From NCBI GenBank assembly GCA_963804645.1, contig CAWDRG010000011.1, positions 1-64,000 of the forward strand: a DNA stretch of 64,000 nucleotides, given 5' to 3'. Positions 3,149 to 18,013 of this stretch are shown one piece after another (the stretch's first letter is position 1; each line of letters starts with the position of its first letter). The position numbers and the translations under genes are program-made. This DNA is from an uncultured Bacillota bacterium (lineage in GTDB: Bacteria > Sysuimicrobiota > Sysuimicrobiia > Sysuimicrobiales > Segetimicrobiaceae). The notes under the pieces are model-generated. The model had not been told where the DNA came from. It did not search any database and saw only the letters and a list, made by a program, of their open reading frames with translations.

Positions 3149-4534
3149 TCAGGCGGGCCGCACTTGCAGCAGCGCGGCCACGTCGTTGATGTCCGAGACC
3201 GTCTCGAGATGATAGACCTGATCCATCAGCCGCTCCGCCGCGTCATGGGAAATCCGGGCTGCGGCCAGCCGGAGAAACTTCTCCTCCAGCTCCGCCCGTG
3301 TCATCGGGTTCTCACGGCGACCCTTGGCCCAGTCCACCCGTGCCGAAAACGTTCGGCCGCCGCGCGCGGTGACCTCGACCACCGCCGGCGACCCGGCTGG
3401 CCAGGGGTCCATCGCCGCGTCTCCGACAAGTGTCACCCGCTCGGACATCGAGCGGATCCGGGGATCGGCGCGCCGGTCCTGCAGGATATCGTTGGGTCCG
3501 ATCGTCCGGTTCACCGCGGCCACTGCCATGATGTATTGGGCGCAGTGCGACTTGAGGGGGTTGTTGTCGATCACCGGTGCCCGATCGGCTTTGACGCGGT
3601 GCACGATCGCGGTGATGTCGTCGGGCGGGATCCGGTGCTCCTCTACGATCCCCAGGAGTGCATCCAACCCCGTGTGGATGTCGCCGCAGCACGGATAGCG
3701 CTTGTAGCCTCCGGCGCGGGTGATCCACAGCGGGGATTCTCCCAATCCGTCGGTCACGCGCTCGACGTGCGCCTCCCCGGCATACGCGTCGTAGATACTG
3801 TACTTGCCCGGGTCGAGGATCGCCGGCGGCCCGCCGAAGCCCATCTGGGCGAGCAGGGCGGCCGTCACCCCGCCGCGCGCCGCCATGCCCAGGCCGAACG
3901 GACGGGAGTCTTCCGTCGGATCGAACACCCACGTCATCAACCCCGCCGCGTTCGTCCCCGCGACGCCCAGCGCGTTGGCAAGCTGCCGCCGATCGAGCTT
4001 GAGAATGTGCCCGGCGGCCGCCGCAGCTCCGAAGTAGCCAAACGTCGCGGACGGATGGAACGAGTGTGGATAGGAGTGCTCGGTGCGGCACGCTTCGCTG
4101 GCCCGGGCGCAGACTTCGTAGCCCACGGCCAGCGCCGTCATGAATGTCCGCCCGTCGGCGTGCTCCCGTTCTCCGACCGCGAGCGCCGCGGGCACCACGA
4201 CCGCCGGGACGTGCTGGCGCGCCACGCTGGCGCCTTCGATATCGGCCGCGTAGCCCATCGTCCCGTTGGCCAGGGCGGCACTCTCGCACGACGTTTTGAA
4301 ATCGCGGCCGATGACGGTGGACTCCGCGACACCGCCCGACCGACGCGCGAGGTCGCCGGTCAGCCGGGACGCGCTGTACTGGGGCGACGACCCTAAGAGC
4401 AGCGCGCCGAACGTGTCGAGCACAATCGTCTTGATCTCGTCGACCGCGGAGTGCGGCACGTCCGCGTACGTGAACGCCGCCGCGTAGGCCACCAGCGCCG
4501 CCGTGACGCCGTCCTGCCGGTTCGATACGGACAT
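3149..4534 (-). CDS. MmgE/PrpD family protein (paralogue 2)
   Basis: AALANGTMGYAADIE, SFHPS, YKRYPCCGDIH, KGRRENPM...EEKF motifs. Confidence 0.9.
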   Translation of the reverse strand: MSVSNRQDGVTAALVAYAAAFTYADVPHSAVDEIKTIVLDTFGALLLGSSPQYSASRLTGDLARRSGGVAESTVIGRDFKTSCESAALANGTMGYAADIEGASVARQHVPAVVVPAALAVGEREHADGRTFMTALAVGYEVCARASEACRTEHSYPHSFHPSATFGYFGAAAAAGHILKLDRRQLANALGVAGTNAAGLMTWVFDPTEDSRPFGLGMAARGGVTAALLAQMGFGGPPAILDPGKYSIYDAYAGEAHVERVTDGLGESPLWITRAGGYKRYPCCGDIHTGLDALLGIVEEHRIPPDDITAIVHRVKADRAPVIDNNPLKSHCAQYIMAVAAVNRTIGPNDILQDRRADPRIRSMSERVTLVGDAAMDPWPAGSPAVVEVTARGGRTFSARVDWAKGRRENPMTRAELEEKFLRLAAARISHDAAERLMDQVYHLETVSDINDVAALLQVRPA

Positions 4535-4559
4535 CGGATCTCTCCCTCCCCTGGTGCTC

Positions 4560-5921
4560 TCAGTGGTTGCCGGTCAGGCATCGCGCCAACACCGACACGT
4601 CGTCGAGCGCGTCGAGCGTGCCCACGAGTTCGATGATCTCCGCGGCGCGCTGTTCGGACACGATGTCGCGCGCCAGCAGTCGAAACTTCGCCTTGATCTC
4701 CGCGTCGCTGAGCGCGTTCTCCGGATCGCCCGTCGGGTAGTAGACAGCCTCGGTGAACTCGCGCCCATCCCGCGTCCGGACGGTCGTAATCCCGGCCCAC
4801 TGCTCCGGGAACAGTTGTTCCAATCCGTCGTCGCCGTGCACTCGCACGCGCGCCGCCAGCGCCGCGACGCGCGGGTCGTCGAGCCGTTTCCCGTCGAGCT
4901 GATCAACCTCGACCCGTCCGTCGTACGTCGCGACGGCCAGGACGTACTGCGCATTGTGCGAGGGGAGCTCGTTATTGTCGATGATGCCGGCCATGGACGT
5001 CGCGACCTTGGTCGAAATCTCGGCGATCTCGTCGCTCGCCAAGCCGTGTTCGCGGACGATCTTGAACAGGCCGTCCAACGGCGCGTGAATCTGGCGGCAC
5101 GCCGCGTATTTCTTGAGGCTCGTGCGCATGATCTCGAACCGCTGCCCGAGCGCGTCGGTCAGGATGTCTGAGACGTCGCGCTCGATCTCACTGAATGCCC
5201 GGAAGAGATTGTGCTTCCCATCGAGCACGTGCGGCGGACCGGTGAACCCCAACACCGCCAGTTGCGCCGCCGTCACGCCGTTTCGGGACGCGATTCCGAT
5301 CTGAAACGCCTTGCTCAACTGAGACGGCTCGGTCACCCAGGCCAGCAGACCGGACGCCTGACATCCCGCCAGCCCGAGCGCGTGCCCCATCTGCGGCGGC
5401 GCGAGCTGCAGGACTCGCCCCGCCGCGACCGTCGCCCCGAAGTTCCCGTCAATCGAGGACGGATGGAACGACCGCGCGTACAGCCGGACCGGATCCAGCG
5501 CGATGCCAACGCGTCCCTCAATATCGTAGGCGGCGACGAGCGCGGCGATCACCTCACGCCCGCTCAGGCGCCGCTCCTCGGCGATGCTCAACGCCGCGGG
5601 AACGACCACGTTCGCGACGTGGGCGTTCGCGGGATTGTAGTTATCGTCCAGTTCCAGGCAGTGCGACATCGTGGCGTTCGCAAAGGCCGCCGCGGTGGGC
5701 GACACCCGGAGACTTGTCCCCGCGACCGTGCAGGGGCCCGACTCCGCGAGCCTGTCGACGAATCGCGTCATGATCTTGCCGGCAGGGTAGCGTGACCCGG
5801 CCAGGAGCGTCCCGAGACAATCCAGCGTCACGTCCTTGACCCGGGCCACGACGGCCGCGGGAAGATCCTCGTATCGTAGCGTGCTTGCGTACTCGGCCAC
5901 CCGATCGGTCACGTGCGTCAT
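4560..5921 (-). CDS. MmgE/PrpD family protein (paralogue 1)
   Basis: AAFANATMSHCLELDD, SFHPS, KKYAACRQIH, PTGDPENAL...KF motifs. Confidence 0.9.
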   Translation of the reverse strand: MTHVTDRVAEYASTLRYEDLPAAVVARVKDVTLDCLGTLLAGSRYPAGKIMTRFVDRLAESGPCTVAGTSLRVSPTAAAFANATMSHCLELDDNYNPANAHVANVVVPAALSIAEERRLSGREVIAALVAAYDIEGRVGIALDPVRLYARSFHPSSIDGNFGATVAAGRVLQLAPPQMGHALGLAGCQASGLLAWVTEPSQLSKAFQIGIASRNGVTAAQLAVLGFTGPPHVLDGKHNLFRAFSEIERDVSDILTDALGQRFEIMRTSLKKYAACRQIHAPLDGLFKIVREHGLASDEIAEISTKVATSMAGIIDNNELPSHNAQYVLAVATYDGRVEVDQLDGKRLDDPRVAALAARVRVHGDDGLEQLFPEQWAGITTVRTRDGREFTEAVYYPTGDPENALSDAEIKAKFRLLARDIVSEQRAAEIIELVGTLDALDDVSVLARCLTGNH

Positions 5922-11633: not shown

Positions 11634-12444
11634 GTCGGGTAGCAGGGTGGCGCGCCGGTCAGGTTACCGTTAAGGAGCCTGACCACGGTTCCACCCCGCC
11701 CCCTATCATCCGGATAGCGGGTTTTCCCCAATCCGGCTGGAAGAGCACGCGCTCAGTTGCAGCGTTCCCGATCCTTCCCAGCCTGTACCTGGGGAGCGAT
11801 TGGTTTGCTGCAGCCTACAGCGTCGGTCCGGATCTTGGCGGTAGCCCGAGCGCGTTATCAGCACCCGCACCCTCTCCTTCTCCAACGCTGGCCTGCTCCC
11901 AGAGGCCCTTTGCTCCCGCTCCTTGTTATCGGAGCGATCATCGCTCCTACGGCCTCATGCGCCAGACTCTCCCCCACCAGTGAACTTCCCGAGTGAAGTC
12001 GGTTATATCACTGGCCTCACGGGTGAGAGCCCTTCCCCGCTTTGACCATCCACCCTTTGGATGTTGCCGCCACCCCTACGCCGGAGGGCTGGTTGCGTGC
12101 ACACGCCCAGCTTCTTCCGCAACCACACTGGCCTTCGTCCCCTATGTAGAAACTTGGCACCCTCATTCCCACTGTGGCGCTGAGCACTCCGTTACCGGAG
12201 CTCTGAGTGGGCCTGAATAACGACGCTGCAGTGTTCACTTCATGTTGCGGCCCCATCCATCGCTCGTCTCCTGGGCCACCGACCGCGGCCTTTATATCTC
12301 TGCCGGGCCGCCGAGACTTGTACGTCCGGGCTTCCGTCTCGCGAGTCACCTCCTTCGAGACGCCGGACAACACTACCGCGGCAAGTTGGGCGACTCCGCG
12401 GGTCGGACTCTCACCGACTGAGTGTATGGCTTTACGGGCTGCAC
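11634..12444 (-). ncRNA. ORF-less group II intron (811 nt)
   Basis: 5' GTGCAGCCCG...CGGTGAGAGTCCG. D3-like GAGGCCGTAGGAGCGATGA...GGAGCAAAGGGCCTC. D5 CAGCCGGATTGGGGAAAACCCGCTATCCGGATG (11707-11739, AGC triad). D6 ends CTACCCGAC. EBS1 loop ACATAG(G) at 12141-12147 is complementary to the 5' exon end (C)CTATGT. Confidence 0.92.
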
Positions 12445-12533
12445 ACATAGGTAACAGATTGTACCGGACACATGGGTAACACTTCCTCCTCCAAAATACC
12501 CCGTGTGAGGTAGCCAGGTCTAGTGTATAAGCG

Positions 12534-12983
12534 TTAGGCCGCTTCGACCGTGACCTTGTAGCCTAACCGTTCGAGCCGGTTGACTGCGTTGCGCACCACC
12601 GCTTCCTTCTTGCGCTCATCGTAGTAGTTGGCGCCCAGGTCCTCATAGGTGACACCGTCCCGCAAGACGTGATAGGCGATTTCCAAGATGTGGCGCCCCA
12701 CAGCGATGGCGGCCCGATTTCCCCCACGGCGGGCGGCGATCCGCCGATAGATGGCGCCGAGGTAGGTGGCCTTGGTCCGTCCTGCGGCCCGCCCCGCTTC
12801 TGTGAGGGTCCGCCGGAGGGTGGGGCTGCCTTTGCGGGTGCGCGCCCGGCGGCGTTTCCCAGCACTCTCATTGCTGCCTGGACTCATCCCCGCCCAGGCC
12901 GCCAGTTGGGCGGTGGTCGGAAAGCGCGTCATATCAGTGCCGACCTCGGCCACGATCACCTCAGCCACGTGTTGATTCACTCC
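12534..12983 (-). pseudogene. IS110 transposase, C-terminal half
   Basis: GVNQHVAEVIVAEVGTDMTRFPTTAQLAAWAGMSPGSNESAGK...AIAVGRHIL (Transposase_20-type, catalytic Ser motif). Confidence 0.9.
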
Positions 12984-12996
12984 CGGGACAGTGGCT

Positions 12997-15057
12997 TCAT
13001 ACTACACCTCCGGCAGTAGCCTTTTGGAGTGACGGTTTGAGGTGCACGGGGGTGGCGGTCCTCTGGCGACACGCCTCTTCGACCGCCGGAGAAAAAGGAA
13101 CACACAAGCGACCGCTCGTGTCGCGACGCGCTGCAAGCTTGCCTGCGTGGATCCAATCGTATACTGTCCATTTGCTGACCCCCAGTCGGCGGACAACCTC
13201 GCAGACCGTCAGCTCTCCTGGGCGAGGCTGAAAGGACGATGCAGGAATGTGGTAGGTGTGGCGGATCCAGCGGACAGATTTCACATCAAATGGCCGCCCC
13301 CCTTTCCGGGTCATTCCCGCCGTGTTGAGTGCGGTGACGATCTCATCATCCTGCTGCATCGCCAGCGCCCGAATCAGATCGACGACCGCACCCGGCGTCC
13401 GTTGAAGATCGCTGGCTGAGGCAGGGCGCTGGACGACGAGCTCCTCAGTCGCACCCGAGCGCCAGCGAATGCCGACGCCTACACGCGCACTGCCTGGAGC
13501 GGACCGTATCGTTACGTCCGCGACGAGCGCGCGAAGAATCCGCTTGCGGTCTCGGGCCGAGGTCGTAGGAGCAGCCCACAACGCGGGCACGTTGCGAGCG
13601 AGCGCCTCCAATTCTTGGCGCGATGGCAGCGGCGGCGCCTCCGCGCGCGCCCCCGCTAACGCGGTTTCCGCTTCCGCCAATGCGACGAGCGCAGTTTCCC
13701 ATCGTTGCTCCAGGCTCCGCGCCACCAGGCGGTTCTCCGGCTCACACTGATGGAACGCTCGCTCCGCCCGCGCCGCCTCATAGCGCGCCCGCTCCACCGG
13801 GAGTTCAGCGGCCCGGATGCGATTGGTCCGTCGTGCTGCGATCTCATCGGCGGCCTGGAGTGCCAGAGCAATCTGGTCTGTCGTGACCACGTCTAACATC
13901 CGCCGGGCCACGGCATCATCGATCACATCCGCCCGAACCGTGCGACACTGCGGAGTCTGGAGGTGCTCGACACGGGAATAGGAACAATCGTAGGCGGCCT
14001 TTCCGGAGGCATAGGAAGCATACCTCGGCGTCATCATCCGGCCACAGCCGCCGCACACGACGATCCCTTGCAGCAGCGCCTCGCCTTCCCGCGCAGGGCG
14101 TGCGCCTCCGCTCGTGTGGTTATGCGCCAACCGGTCCAGATTTGCAAGATAGGTCTCCCAGCTGATGTACGCGGGGTGATGGTGAGGGAGAACCACAAGC
14201 CATTCCTCCCGCGGAAGCTCTACTCGCTTCCGCCGAATTGAGCCATCCGGCTGTACGATGCGCCGGCATCGGTATCGTCCAAAGACGTAGGTCCCAGCAT
14301 AGACCGGGTTGGAAAGCATGCCAAGCACCCGGTAGTACGTGAGCCGGCCCCACCGGATCTCTCCCGTCCAGACGCCCCCGTGCACTCGCCGAGGAAACGG
14401 ACGCCGGCGAAAGATGCCCGCCGCGCCATATGCTGATCCGCTGGCCTCGAACGCGGCGAAGACGTCTGTGACGGCCTGCCGGATCTCCTCGTCCAAGTCC
14501 ATCACGGTACGGCCGTCCTGATCATACACGTAGCCGACTGGCAGCGGAACGCGTAATTCACCACGGGCCGCCGCGGCACGTTTCGACTCCTGCAACCGCC
14601 CGGCGAGGATATGAAGCTCTGCTTCGGACATTGCGCCCTTCAAGCCCAACAGGAGCCTGTCGTTAAAATGTTGCAGATTGTACACGCCGTCGGCATCGAT
14701 GATCAGCGTGTCCGTCAGGTTGCAGAATTCCAACAATCGTTGGAGGTCCGCGGAACTGCGGGCTAACCGCGAGACCTCCAACCCCAAGATGGCGCCGACC
14801 TCGCCCAGGCACACCCGACTGACGAGCTCCTGAAACCCCGCACGGGTGGTGCCGCTGCGACCGGACAGGCCCAGATCGGCATCGATCACGAGGATCTTGG
14901 ATGCTTCCCACCCCAATCGGGTGGCTTCCTCCGCCAGTGCATACTGCCGGGCGGTCGACTCGGTGTGTTCGCGCACCTGGGTCATCGTGGACTGTCGCAC
15001 ATACACGATTGCCAGACGCTCCCGGTGAGTGGGCGTGATCGTCCTCGCGTCGCTCAT
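12997..15057 (-). CDS. Large serine recombinase (resolvase + recombinase + Zn-ribbon + C-terminal HTH)
   Basis: AIVYVRQST (catalytic Ser), DLGLSG, EVSRLARS, LLQGIVVCGGCG...YDC, C-terminal excisionase-like HTH (EVVRRLGVSKWTVYDWIHAGKL). Confidence 0.95.
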   Translation of the reverse strand: MSDARTITPTHRERLAIVYVRQSTMTQVREHTESTARQYALAEEATRLGWEASKILVIDADLGLSGRSGTTRAGFQELVSRVCLGEVGAILGLEVSRLARSSADLQRLLEFCNLTDTLIIDADGVYNLQHFNDRLLLGLKGAMSEAELHILAGRLQESKRAAAARGELRVPLPVGYVYDQDGRTVMDLDEEIRQAVTDVFAAFEASGSAYGAAGIFRRRPFPRRVHGGVWTGEIRWGRLTYYRVLGMLSNPVYAGTYVFGRYRCRRIVQPDGSIRRKRVELPREEWLVVLPHHHPAYISWETYLANLDRLAHNHTSGGARPAREGEALLQGIVVCGGCGRMMTPRYASYASGKAAYDCSYSRVEHLQTPQCRTVRADVIDDAVARRMLDVVTTDQIALALQAADEIAARRTNRIRAAELPVERARYEAARAERAFHQCEPENRLVARSLEQRWETALVALAEAETALAGARAEAPPLPSRQELEALARNVPALWAAPTTSARDRKRILRALVADVTIRSAPGSARVGVGIRWRSGATEELVVQRPASASDLQRTPGAVVDLIRALAMQQDDEIVTALNTAGMTRKGGRPFDVKSVRWIRHTYHIPASSFQPRPGELTVCEVVRRLGVSKWTVYDWIHAGKLAARRDTSGRLCVPFSPAVEEACRQRTATPVHLKPSLQKATAGGVV

Positions 15058-15142
15058 GCGCGTTCCCCCCGGCGGCGAGCGCGGCCTCGAGCATGTTGGC
15101 CAGCGGCGCCACGAGTTCGCTCGTCGCGCCGCTGAACCCCAC

Positions 15143-15490
15143 TCAGGTCAGCTCCCCGCGGGTCAGCAGTTCCAGGTTGATCGCCGAGATCTCCGCCAGC
15201 GTCGCCTCGATGCGGGCGGTGAGCATGACCCGGCGGCGTACCGCCGCCGCCAGCGCCGCCGGAATATACAGGAGACGCCGTCCCGTTCCCCGCCGGACCG
15301 TCAGGAACACGTACGGACCGTGCAGCTCCCCCCGCGCGCACCGGCAGCCCGGTTTCCCACACCGCCGGTGCTGGATTACCAGCGCCCCGTGCATGACCGC
15401 CTCGAGCGTCGGGAGGCTGCGTGCCCGTTGGGTCCGGCGCGCGCGTAATTGCCTCGTGCTGAGCTTGGCGAGTGGTATCTTTTGTATCAT
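15143..15490 (-). CDS. DUF6788-like small basic Zn-binding protein
   Basis: GALVIQHRRCGKPGCRCARGELHGPYVFL...LYIP motif, typical of DUF6788 proteins next to transposases/recombinases. Confidence 0.75.
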   Translation of the reverse strand: MIQKIPLAKLSTRQLRARRTQRARSLPTLEAVMHGALVIQHRRCGKPGCRCARGELHGPYVFLTVRRGTGRRLLYIPAALAAAVRRRVMLTARIEATLAEISAINLELLTRGELT

Positions 15491-15519
15491 TGGTACCAAA
15501 GATATCACCTGCCGCGGGA

Positions 15520-15801
15520 AACGTCAAGGGGTGCGACAGCACCGCCACCACGCGGAGCACCTCCACCAGAATGGAGGCGGTGAGAGGGTGTGGCTCCGGA
15601 GGGGCGCCGCGATCGGTAAAAGCTTCTGGCAACGCAATACTGCCGGCTGGCCCGGCATCACAAATGTAGATACGTCCACGAGTGGCGTAGCGGCGTGTGA
15701 CCAGTATGGGAAGTCGCTGGTCCCTCAGCGGATGAAACGGATGGGTGACAACGAGGGAATCCGAAAGACTACTGACTGCACTCGTAGTTTGCGTGGACCG
15801 T
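15520..15801 (-). CDS. DUF5372 (Y4bD)-like ORF lacking a start codon in the integrated state; frame stays open to 15054
   Basis: ...SDSLVVTHPFHPLRDQRLPIL...SIALPEAFTDR; no ATG/GTG/TTG ahead of the THPFHPL motif, and an in-frame TGA lies just across the junction. Confidence 0.7.
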
Positions 15802-16575
15802 CGGGATCGTGTCGAGCTGCGTCATCTGGGCCTCGAAAGGGACGAGGCGGGCCGTCACCTCCGCATCCAGGGCCGCGATCTGCTGGTCGAGATGTCGAAT
15901 GTGCTCCAATTGGAGCCGCAGCATGAGGTGCTGATGCCGGGTGAGCCGCCCGCGCAATGCGTCGACCAACTGCTCTTGCGTGGCCCGCAACCGGGGATCC
16001 GCGAGCGCCGCGATGTCCTCAGGACTGCGCTGGCCCGTCGCGAGGGCCTCCAGCATCGCGCGGCCGGATTTGCCCAGAATGTCGGTCACCACCGACCCAA
16101 GTTTAATGTTGCCACCCTCCAAGACCTTGTGGATGCGGTTGGTTTCATCTGCCCGTTCGCTGACCATCGTGATGCGATATCGGATCAATTCTCGCAACTC
16201 TCGCTGCGGACGCGGAGGGATGAAGCTGGCCTTCAGCAGCCCGTGCCGCATCAGGTCGGAGATCCATTCCGCATCGTGCACATCCGTTTTGCGCCCCGGG
16301 ACGGCTTTCATGTGCGCAGCGTTCACGACATACACCGTCATGCCCGTAGCTTCCAACAGATTATAGAGCGGCTTCCAGTAGACCCCGGTGCTTTCCATGG
16401 CTACGTGCGTAATCTGCAGCGCCTGCAACCACTCCATTAGGAGGAGGAGCTCCGAGGTCGTCGTTCCAAAGGTCCGAGTTTCGCTGCTGGCCGGCACCAC
16501 CGCGTGGACGGTCACGGTTTTCTTGTGCACATCGCATCCTGCACACCGCTCGTACAGCACCTTCAAGTTCCCCAC
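15802..16575 (-). pseudogene. IS110 transposase, N-terminal half (DEDD RuvC-like domain)
   Basis: GTG start after GGAGG; CAGCDVHK, VAMESTGVYWKP, PGRKTDVHDAEWI. Confidence 0.92.
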
Positions 16576-16797
16576 GGCTATCCTCCCTGCGACGGTTCGC
16601 GGCGATCCGTATAGAGGAATTCTCCTCCGCATGCTCGCCCGAAGGCGGCGACAATGCGTGGTGCGCCAGATCGCCGGGGTCAGACTCCCATCCACGGGCT
16701 CTCGGCACCAAGGAAACTTCGACCTCTCGTCCCCCGCCGCAGTCATGTCCTTCGATGGGGTGGGCCGATTTCATTCTGCGTGGTGCTGGCTATGGCC
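16576..16797 (-). ncRNA. Candidate IS110 bridge-RNA-encoding non-coding end
   Basis: ~220-nt non-coding region upstream of the IS110 recombinase, the position known to encode bridge RNA; structure not folded here. Confidence 0.45.
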
Positions 16798-16830
16798 AGC
16801 ATGGGGGGCTCCCCGAAAGGGGGAGGTCGG

Positions 16831-18013
16831 ATGCCTTGGAAGGAGTGTTCGGTCATGGACGAAAGAATGCAGTTCGTCGCGCGTCGACTGGCGGGTGAGC
16901 CGATGGCGGAACTGTGCCGAGCGTTTGGGATTTCCCACAAGACCGGCTACAAGCTCTTCGAGCGGTATCAGGAATGCGGCCTTCACGGGCTCACGGACCG
17001 CAGCCGGCGTCCGTATCGCTACGCCAACCAACTGCCCTTTCAAGTCGAGAACTACATTCTCAATGTGAAGCGCGAGCACCCCAGCTGGGGGGCGCGGAAA
17101 ATTCGCGAGCGCGTGACGCGCCGGTTCTCGGGGATTCCCCATCCCCGCGAAGAGCACGATCCATGCGGTGCTGGATCGTCACGGCCGGGTGGAGCGTCGC
17201 GGTCGGATGCGGCGGCGGGCTCAGGGCACCCCCTTGTCGCTCGGGCACCGTCCGAACGAAGTATGGTGCACCGATTACAAAGGCGAGCTCCTGCTTGGCA
17301 ATCACCACTACTGCTATCCGCTCACGGTCACCGACCACGCCAGCCGGTTTCTGCTGGCCTGCGAAGCCCCCTCGTCCACCAAAGAACCCTACGCGGTGAC
17401 GGTGTTTGAGCGGCTGTTTCAGGAGCGCGGGCTCCCGGCCAACATCCGCAGCGATAACGGCGTCCCGTTCTCGTCCGCGCACGCCCTCTTTCACTTGAGC
17501 AGACTGGCGGTCTGGTGGTTACGCCTCGGCATTGGCATCGAACGTATCCAACCCGGCCATCCCCAACAGAATGGCCGGCATGAACGCGTGCACCTCACGT
17601 TGAAGAAAGAAGCCACCAAGCCCGCCGCGGCCAACTTCCTGCAGCAGCAGGTCCGGTTTGACAAATTTATCGACATCTTCAACAACGAACGCCCGCACGA
17701 AGCGCTGGGCATGAAATGTCCGGCGGAAGTCTACCACCCGTCCCAACGTCCCTACACCGGCTTGCCGGATATCGATTATCCGCTGCATGACAAGACCATC
17801 GTGGTCACCCAGTGCAGTCGCATCTGTCTGGACAACCACAAGATCAACTTCAGCCAGGTTTTTGCGGGACAAGCCGTCGGCATTAAAGAGGTGTATGATG
17901 ACATCTGGCTGGTCAGCTTTATGGATTATGACCTAGGGTACTTTGATCTAGAGACACGAGTGCTCGAACCGCTCGAAAATCCGTTCGGCCCGAAAGTGTT
18001 ACCTATGTCTTAG
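16831..18013 (+). pseudogene. IS481-family transposase, +1 frameshift at ~17140
   Basis: MPWKECSVMDERMQFV HTH N-terminus; rve core WCTDYKG / IRSDNG / QQNGRHER; ends KVLPMS within the right repeat. Removing one C from ATTCCCCATC restores GIPIPAKSTIHAVL. Confidence 0.9.

Follow-up and report, generated by a model that had tools for sequence, protein, structure and literature searches.

The closest described systems to the element analysed here are Tn4451/Tn4453 and Tn5397, in which large serine recombinases (LSRs), TnpX and TndX, insert multi-copy elements at multiple sites with a loose motif and a dinucleotide core, and excise them as circles. The joint of the Tn4451 circle forms a promoter for tnpX, another instance of circle-specific expression. 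Here we describe an element from an uncultured Bacillota bacterium (GTDB family Segetimicrobiaceae), found in the first 64,000 nucleotides of contig CAWDRG010000011.1 (assembly GCA_963804645.1), a stretch that we call the window. Positions 12985-15805 are likely, in our judgement, to be a cargo-less 2.8-kb multi-target LSR insertion element that nests mainly in the genes of other mobile elements and carries a gene probably expressed only from the circle.

The window element appears to resemble the TnpX and TndX elements in its multi-site insertion, dinucleotide core, loose motif and multiple copies, and we propose the same excision as a circle. It differs in having no cargo gene, a CC core in GC-rich sites and two small partner proteins, DUF5372 and DUF6788; its circle would restore an open reading frame (ORF) together with a ribosome-binding site, not a promoter alone. 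The phage and island integrases that work with a directionality factor (Bxb1, PhiC31, SprA/SprB, XisF, CcrAB) share the Resolvase/Recombinase/zinc-ribbon architecture of its enzyme, and also imperfect dyad arms in attP, a non-palindromic 2-bp core and small accessory genes beside the integrase. However, these integrases serve elements of tens of kb and a single attB, whereas the window enzyme serves 2.8 kb, its own three genes only and several sites. The IS607 family likewise uses a serine recombinase as the transposase of an insertion sequence (IS), with a MerR/Xis-type helix-turn-helix (HTH) attached and relaxed site choice. IS607 TnpA is a small recombinase of ~190-220 aa with an N-terminal HTH, whereas the enzyme here has 686 aa and a C-terminal HTH, which sets it outside that family.

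Two other systems place a recombination junction within a functional unit, with expression that differs between the integrated and the excised state. In the integration-dependent immunity of mycobacteriophages attP lies within a gene of the element, and integration cuts the repressor gene short at its 3' end; in IS of the IS911/IS30 type the circle joint assembles a promoter. The window element differs from both in that integration would part a gene from its ribosome-binding site and start codon. Our literature search found no gene parted from its start codon by the attP of a serine recombinase, and wider searches, of titles and abstract openings, returned nothing on an LSR element of such make-up. 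The multi-targeting LSR clade, that of TnpX and TndX, is described by Durrant et al. (2022, PMC10083194) as typically carrying DUF4368, present in 63%. In its domain content the window LSR differs from what is typical of this clade: it has no DUF4368 match and an HTH_17/Xis-like C-terminus instead.

Ends, crossover core and recombinase

The features on which the description of the element rests are these, in window coordinates; in sequences, a slash marks the junction.

12985..15805, minus strand: inserted element, bounded by CCC (GGG on the plus strand) at both ends
12984..12988, strand not assigned: attR crossover region, 5 nt identical to 15802-15806
12988..13012, minus strand: right-end attP arm (P arm), defined by sequence and conserved in relatives
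15778..15802, minus strand: left-end attP arm (P' arm), GACGGTCCACGCAAACTACGAGTGC
12997..15057, minus strand: LSR of 686 aa, with Resolvase, Recombinase and Zn_ribbon_recom domains, a helical stretch and a C-terminal Xis/MerR-type HTH_17
12534..12984, minus strand: C-terminal part of an IS110 transposase gene, starting PGVNQHVAEV... (Pfam PF02371, Transposase_20, 2.1e-18, model positions 7-80)
15806..16575, minus strand: N-terminal part of the IS110 transposase gene, ending ...FEAQMTQLDT(IP) (Pfam PF01548, DEDD_Tnp_IS110, 3.2e-32)

Both junctions can be read in the sequence, and the att strings proposed in the initial annotation of this DNA are present in the window where it had placed them. 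At the right end the minus strand reads ...GGAGGTGTAGTATGAAGCCACTGTCCC and then, across the junction, GGGAGTGAATC (13011-12975); the flank after GGAGGTGTAGTATGAAGCCACTGTCCC can also be written GGGAGTGAATCAACAC. At the left end it reads ...CTCGACACGAT and then CCCGACGGTCCACGCAAACTAC (15816-15784), so that about 2.8 kb upstream on the minus strand ...CAGCTCGACACGAT precedes CCCGACGGTCCACGCAAACTAC. The 19-mer of the left arm occurs a single time in the window, against none expected from 100 shuffles. One CCC copy belongs to the target, and the mobile unit is 2,818 bp with three genes, which bears out the initial view of a minimal element driven by an LSR.

That view also included symmetric attP arms around a bare CC identity. 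The arms are indeed symmetric, but imperfectly so: 14 of 25 positions match (binomial P about 0.002), with 13-14 of 25 in three further lineages, and the element ends are imperfect inverted ends. The identity between the junctions, on the other hand, extends to 5 nt, TCCCG on the minus strand (CGGGA on the plus strand; 12984-12988 = 15802-15806). We assign CC as the crossover core because CC alone is common to the junctions of relatives, whose ends read CC/GACGGTCACGT... and ...ATATGAAGCCACCGTG/CC and whose flanks share nothing else. As in the att sites of LSRs, the arms form an imperfect dyad, the 2-bp core is non-palindromic, no target duplication extends beyond the core in relatives, and removal of the element restores the target frame or gene (the IS110 gene for the window copy; tRNA-Asp in relative L013).

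The insertion into the IS110 gene is precise. The gene, which has a GTG start at 16575 with GGAGG upstream, is split at QLDTIP/GVN, and each half holds one of the two domains (DEDD_Tnp_IS110 and Transposase_20) of an IS110-family protein of ~400 aa. An intact paralogue of 409 aa on contig C19 of the same genome reads ...VVDMIPGIGRR... at this point; the N-terminal half of the window gene is 57.6% identical to its residues 1-255 and the C-terminal half 55% identical from residue 257. Joined, the halves are colinear with the paralogue, with I-P supplied by the junction and no residue lost, gained or duplicated, which agrees with the earlier expectation that excision would restore the frame.

We also compared window positions 12600-16200 with Logan contigs (not reads) from four metagenome runs. 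One 167-nt contig (run X2) joins window 12983 to 15802, skipping 2,818 nt, with ~50 nt of support on its shorter side and 8 mismatches in 116 nt on its longer side. It shows the site without interruption in a peat-metagenome IS110 relative that has diverged to roughly 93% identity. No excision product or circle of the window copy was seen in the contigs of the four runs, and the own genome yielded no second copy of the window's IS110 halves.

By every sequence feature examined the enzyme qualifies as a large serine recombinase. Its Pfam matches are Resolvase (3.7e-19), Recombinase (1.6e-11), Zn_ribbon_recom (1.6e-10) and HTH_17 (4e-07). The catalytic domain PF00239 spans residues 16-167 and carries the YVRQS motif of the nucleophilic serine, in which Y19, R21 and Q22 are invariant among 16 homologues and S23 is conserved in at least 90%. 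PF07508 and PF13408 are both present, and the four cysteines of the zinc ribbon (C335, C338, C358, C371) are invariant in the same homologues. DUF4368 is absent among the Pfam matches at E<=0.01. Every NCBIfam match falls below its cut-off: the matches to XisF/Ccr are weak (XisF, 74.6 against 375 bits), 'excise' scores 28.6 against 28.8 bits, and NF033518 (IS607), which covers the HTH only, 17.3 against 110 bits. The extra C-terminal Xis-type HTH (residues 616-650) may contribute to site choice.

Copies of the element and choice of targets

A second copy lies elsewhere in the host genome (22 contigs, 5.3 Mb), on contig C15 (239304-242112); its identity with the window begins and ends exactly at 12985 and 15805, and its flanks differ. 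This copy has 10 differences over 2,821 nt (99.6% identity) and interrupts an IS3-family orfB at ...VLGVSP/SGFYAW..., with an HTH_Tnp_1 orfA upstream and rve fragments downstream; an IS3 copy of this type spanning the insertion site was not found in the own genome. Three metagenome contigs from JGI (L051, L052, L053) match the window element at 100% identity over 2,204, 2,820 and 1,381 nt, with three different right flanks. L051 runs on into an intact IS3 orfB (HTH_21, rve, rve_3, rve_2) of a different IS3 relative than that on C15, and L053 has the identical recombinase with a third right flank that has no Pfam match. In L052 the right flank is the IS110 sequence of the window, but the left flank is unrelated to it and lies upstream of a secreted repeat protein (1-698 vs 3519-3779); either the recombinase has rearranged two copies, or the contig is an assembly chimera joined through the repeat. 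Loose contig ends in runs X2 and X7 show IS3-type flanks too.

Near-identical copies with different flanks indicate that the element is mobile. Its being an inactive fossil, with ends of merely historical meaning, is most improbable: while neither a circle nor an empty site of the exact window copy was seen, and the copies on C15 and C9 (below) are damaged, all three frames of the window copy (DUF5372, DUF6788, LSR) are open, and contigs from independent metagenomes match it at 100% identity beside other flanks. Two observations nonetheless count against the reading of a mobile, multi-target element. Four 1-nt deletions in the C15 copy break DUF6788 and the start of the LSR, which could be decay or assembly error, the two not being distinguishable; and some of the metagenome flanks may be chimeric, given L052. 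As regards the C15 copy itself, nine of its ten differences from the window lie at C on the plus strand, four of them single-C deletions. Such differences could be long-read homopolymer errors, and frameshifts in this assembly need careful reading.

Contig C9 holds a third copy, which is degraded; where it can be compared with the window element, the identity is 94.9%. The C9 copy is fused to an IS110 relative (79.8% identical) in the order and orientation of the window, the equivalent of 15498-15998 being lost, and it looks like a second, independent hit in an IS110 gene. In the same copy, a 1.1-kb stretch (L008 ~4395-5462; C9 ~1098394-1099461) is almost free of C on the plus strand (A 50-61%, G ~29%). 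Compared with the window LSR, 90 of 99 and 114 of 124 C positions have become A, with A, G and T kept; treating C and A as one letter gives this copy an identity of 93.6% over 1,520 nt. The tract has sharp boundaries with an unconverted CGTTAAG at each and is the sole one of its kind in the 5.3-Mb genome, and a 30-mer from it was not found in the metagenome contigs. It is either an assembly or read artefact or the product of strand-specific G-to-T hypermutation of the coding strand.

The initial annotation had taken the element for a dedicated parasite of IS110, reversibly switching it off, with the conserved IPG motif of IS110 transposases as its single attB. The window copy does sit in that motif, the C9 copy is joined, across a deletion of roughly 500 bp, to another IS110 gene, and the X2 contig shows that an uninterrupted relative of the site exists. 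However, the same element occupies IS3 orfB on C15 and in L051 and the flank without a Pfam family in L053, the intact IS110 paralogue of the same genome has ATGATTCCCGGC at the motif and no insertion there, and no excision of the window copy was seen. The reading of IPG as 'the' attB is not supported. Judging from these copies, the targets of the window element include IS110 and IS3 transposase genes, both hit more than once, and probably further sites.

A survey of homologues, which the initial annotation had called for, did not reveal an IS110 bias either. Scanning one genome per species gave 19 genome loci at 42-69% identity, 14 of them with a classifiable flank (relatives at 55-69% identity). 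Their hosts are mostly metagenome-assembled genomes of Solirubrobacterales, Acidobacteriota and Dormiibacterota, with up to three copies per genome; copies inside one genome are 99.9% identical over 2,819-2,820 bp, with unrelated flanks. Nine of the 14 loci, amounting to seven distinct flank sequences (L011 equals L024, and L012 is close to L014), lie in group II intron-type reverse transcriptases (RTs), co-oriented with them, at RVT_1 model position 17-18 (LGIP/TVxDR), and the RT frame is continuous across the insertions. The others are one each in another RT site on the other strand, a cas3 gene between its HD and helicase domains (L010 3391-4230, 7051-8589, minus strand), an IS1595 transposase gene, a DDE_Tnp_1_6 transposase gene and a tRNA-Asp(GTC) gene (L013 4231/7049), where ARAGORN finds the tRNA only after in silico removal of the element. 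None of the 14 lies in an IS110 gene. The cas3 and tRNA-Asp genes are cellular, not mobile, targets.

The metagenome scan added 44 loci. Of the 11 right flanks sent to Pfam, five matched RTs and three DDE_Tnp_1-type transposases; IS3 orfB and IS110 accounted for one each, and the last had no match. The lone IS110 flank is that of L052, the same element as in the window. Two further flanks (L066, L067) were read as RT by eye only. With relatives overwhelmingly in group II intron RT genes, IS110 specificity is not supported, and we regard a dedicated IS110 parasite as very unlikely. Listed by cluster, the sites of the window enzyme are IS110 and IS3, together with an unclassified right flank and an odd left flank; those of the Solirubrobacterales cluster are several RT genes, cas3 and tRNA-Asp. 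Nearer to the host, none of 22 genomes of the window's own family holds an LSR homologue, and 7 of 93 other genomes of the same order do (38-45% identity, on short contigs).

The nesting could also reflect survivorship, if the recombinase inserted the element at nearly any CC and the copies were retained only where the DNA is dispensable. The diversity of sites (IS110, IS3, IS1595, DDE_Tnp_1, RT, cas3, tRNA-Asp, unclassified) and the little sequence shared by the window element's two sites would suit this idea. Yet the insertions in thirteen distinct RT genes share both codon and orientation, and the RT flanks (9 left and 13 right) give the consensus GCTGGGTATC-CC-GACGGT...GAC on both sides of the core. 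Such a clear consensus argues that target preference is sequence-based and not due to survivorship alone; moreover, the identical element hits diverged IS3 relatives at the same motif, and two insertions are in cellular genes. We therefore consider survivorship unlikely as the explanation. On this evidence, the family lands repeatedly on a few short motifs, mostly inside the genes of other mobile elements.

The surroundings of the full copies hold further mobile DNA. Both full copies have, within a few hundred bases, a 578-bp repeat of 99% identity that is inverted and placed on opposite sides of the two (window 11902-12477; L002 5232-5809, L002 being the locus of the C15 copy); the ORFs in its window part have no Pfam match, and it probably marks where another insertion sequence ends. 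Directly next to the interrupted IS110 gene is an IS481-type transposase whose sequence is divided between two frames (window 16654-18010, plus strand; HTH_32 and LZ_Tnp_IS481, then rve and rve_3). This region of the window is a cluster of mobile elements.

A reading frame that opens at the crossover

15510..15803, minus strand: DUF5372 reading frame (Pfam PF17342, 2.7e-09)

The DUF5372 frame, which by its conservation represents a real member of the family, opens within the left-end core, at its second base (CC/CGA CGG TCC..., read RRSTQTTSAVSSLSDSLVVTHPFHPL). In the window it has no in-frame ATG, GTG or TTG ahead of the conserved VVTHPFHPL, of which THPFHPL is invariant in an alignment of 11 DUF5372 sequences. 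At the other end of the element, within the right-end arm, GGAGGTG (13011-13005) is followed after 4 nt by ATG (13000-12998), which overlaps the recombinase stop TGA (12999-12997) as ATGA. Read through a single core, this ATG is in frame with DUF5372 (ATG AAG CCA CTG TCC CGA CGG..., giving MKPLSRRS...), and it is so only across the circle junction. Because the right-end Shine-Dalgarno (SD) sequence and ATG join the frame in the circle alone, we infer, as the simplest reading, that DUF5372 is probably translated only from the excised circle, coupled to the recombinase.

Relatives conserve the arrangement. Their right ends carry the motif (G/T)GAGGTN-N4-(A/T)TGAAGCCAC, with an ATG or TTG always 14 nt before the core and in frame with DUF5372 via a single core. 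The GAGGTG lies outside the arm symmetry. Of the 7 other genomes of the order with an LSR homologue, 6 have DUF5372 on the same contig as the homologue. Gene callers, for their part, have given DUF5372 homologues unrelated N-termini built from flanking DNA.

It is quite conceivable, if clearly short of an even chance, that DUF5372 is instead an ordinary gene of the integrated element, started at an internal GTG or TTG, at a non-canonical codon or by read-in from the target, and that the right-end GGAGGTG...ATG is kept as recombinase-binding DNA and as the C-terminus of the LSR. In-frame GTG or TTG codons within the element occur in 17 of 30 distinct leaders, representing three lineages and mostly of the Solirubrobacterales type, which has GTG GTG directly before THPFHPL. 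Thirteen of the 30, however, lack a canonical start, and five lineages (the window, L022, L020, L025 and the L054 type) have none between the element end and THPFHPL. Read-in is met by stops in the DUF5372 frame just outside the element in L023, L054, L057 and L073, and by the target frame of the IS110 and RT genes (IP/TV... in the latter), which differs from that of DUF5372; in L002, on the other hand, the upstream flank frame happens to enter DUF5372. As for the right-end motif, GGAGGTG codes for part of the recombinase in the window, L022 and L015. In the Solirubrobacterales lineage, though, the LSR stops 12 nt earlier, so that GAGGTG is noncoding yet kept, and in L025 the motif is still kept ~130 nt past the LSR stop.

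Several observations weigh against a circle-only DUF5372, beyond the leaders with internal starts, the L002 flank and possible non-canonical starts. The right-end ATG/TTG lies within a symmetric T(A/T)TGA motif of both arms, and recombinase binding alone could conserve it; likewise, the distance from the element end to THPFHPL is invariant, and indels therefore offer no frame test. The window frame stays open to 15054, where relatives stop after ~98 codons, and DUF5372 may be altered in the window copy. No circle junction, which would place DUF5372 downstream of the LSR, was found in 35 metagenome contigs examined, nor any head-to-tail joint in the contigs of the four metagenome runs, and fold searches returned no match in support of a role for either small protein.

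A different use of the right-end ATG, as the start of an N-terminally truncated target protein, was ruled out: it is not in frame with the IS110 gene, where a stop follows after 7 codons, or with the RT genes. In L002 it is in frame with the IS3 orfB.

The AF2 model of DUF5372 (pLDDT 81) is a small beta-barrel with a helix. Foldseek matched it to generic small beta-barrels only (PsaE, NdhS, SH3, Tudor, KOW; best E 0.19), from which no function can be read. A plasmid search with DUF5372 returned three Streptomyces records at 37-46% identity; in the one inspected, a plasmid of Streptomyces sp. NBC_01455 (L050 5001-5174), a DUF5372-like frame is unannotated upstream of a 'recombinase family protein' annotated in two pieces. 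Elements of the same type seem to exist in Streptomyces linear plasmids.

The accessory gene, the circle and directionality

15143..15508, minus strand: DUF6788 gene (Pfam PF20586, 1e-21)
15499..15527, minus strand: promoter-like site TTGACG-17-TATCTT with TG, a consensus match only, just upstream of DUF6788

The listed start of the DUF6788 ORF is GTG 15508; alignment with relatives, which begin M-x-HK, makes ATG 15490 the likely start. The family is large (1,381 cluster representatives at E<=1e-3), and the AF2 model (pLDDT 94) shows a Cys/His knuckle sheet with a 33-residue C-terminal helix. No function could be read from its fold search either (best Foldseek E 0.48; VIA-wide Z at most 6.5, on helical matches). 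NCBIfam has no family for the DUF6788 or the DUF5372 protein, no family or fold match points to a recombination directionality factor for either, and a full-text literature search found no paper naming DUF6788 or DUF5372. A complex prediction of the LSR (16-row alignment) with DUF6788 (46-row alignment) scored 0.00 in two runs without controls and counts neither way. Two promoter-like sites were found where 0.5 are expected, and the one upstream of DUF6788 overlaps a 23-nt inverted repeat (15467-15513) that is 78% complementary.

If the circle-only reading of DUF5372 holds, the following cycle can be proposed. In the integrated element, the internal promoter would express DUF6788 and the LSR. 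The LSR would then recombine attL with attR at CC, releasing a 2,818-bp circle and restoring the target gene. In the circle, the right-end SD and ATG would be joined in frame to the left-end DUF5372, and the whole would form one continuous, ring-shaped operon of DUF6788, LSR and, last, DUF5372. It is tempting to speculate that DUF5372 works while the element is a circle, promoting attP x attB integration or preventing its reversal, and that DUF6788 is an accessory factor of the integrated state.

By parting the DUF5372 body from its ribosome-binding site and start, attP would thus make a circle-only protein that tells the recombinase which form the element is in, and so control directionality, in a family that would at the same time be a hyperparasitic IS homing into motifs of mobile-element genes (RT 'GIP', IS110 'IPG', IS3 'GVSPSG'). 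We offer this fuller picture tentatively, as a possibility not far short of even. To our knowledge, such built-in directionality control has not been described for serine recombinases.

Serine integrases are wanted as genome-engineering tools, and are limited by how much is known of their natural att sites and of the control of direction. This family offers a self-contained 2.8-kb unit with defined ends, a CC core and dozens of natural target sites, an enzyme with an unusual extra C-terminal HTH, and two small partners, DUF5372 and DUF6788. The circle-only gene, if true, would be a simple logic for sensing excision. The strong preference for mobile-element genes, finally, bears on competition among transposons and their mutual inactivation in soil bacteria.

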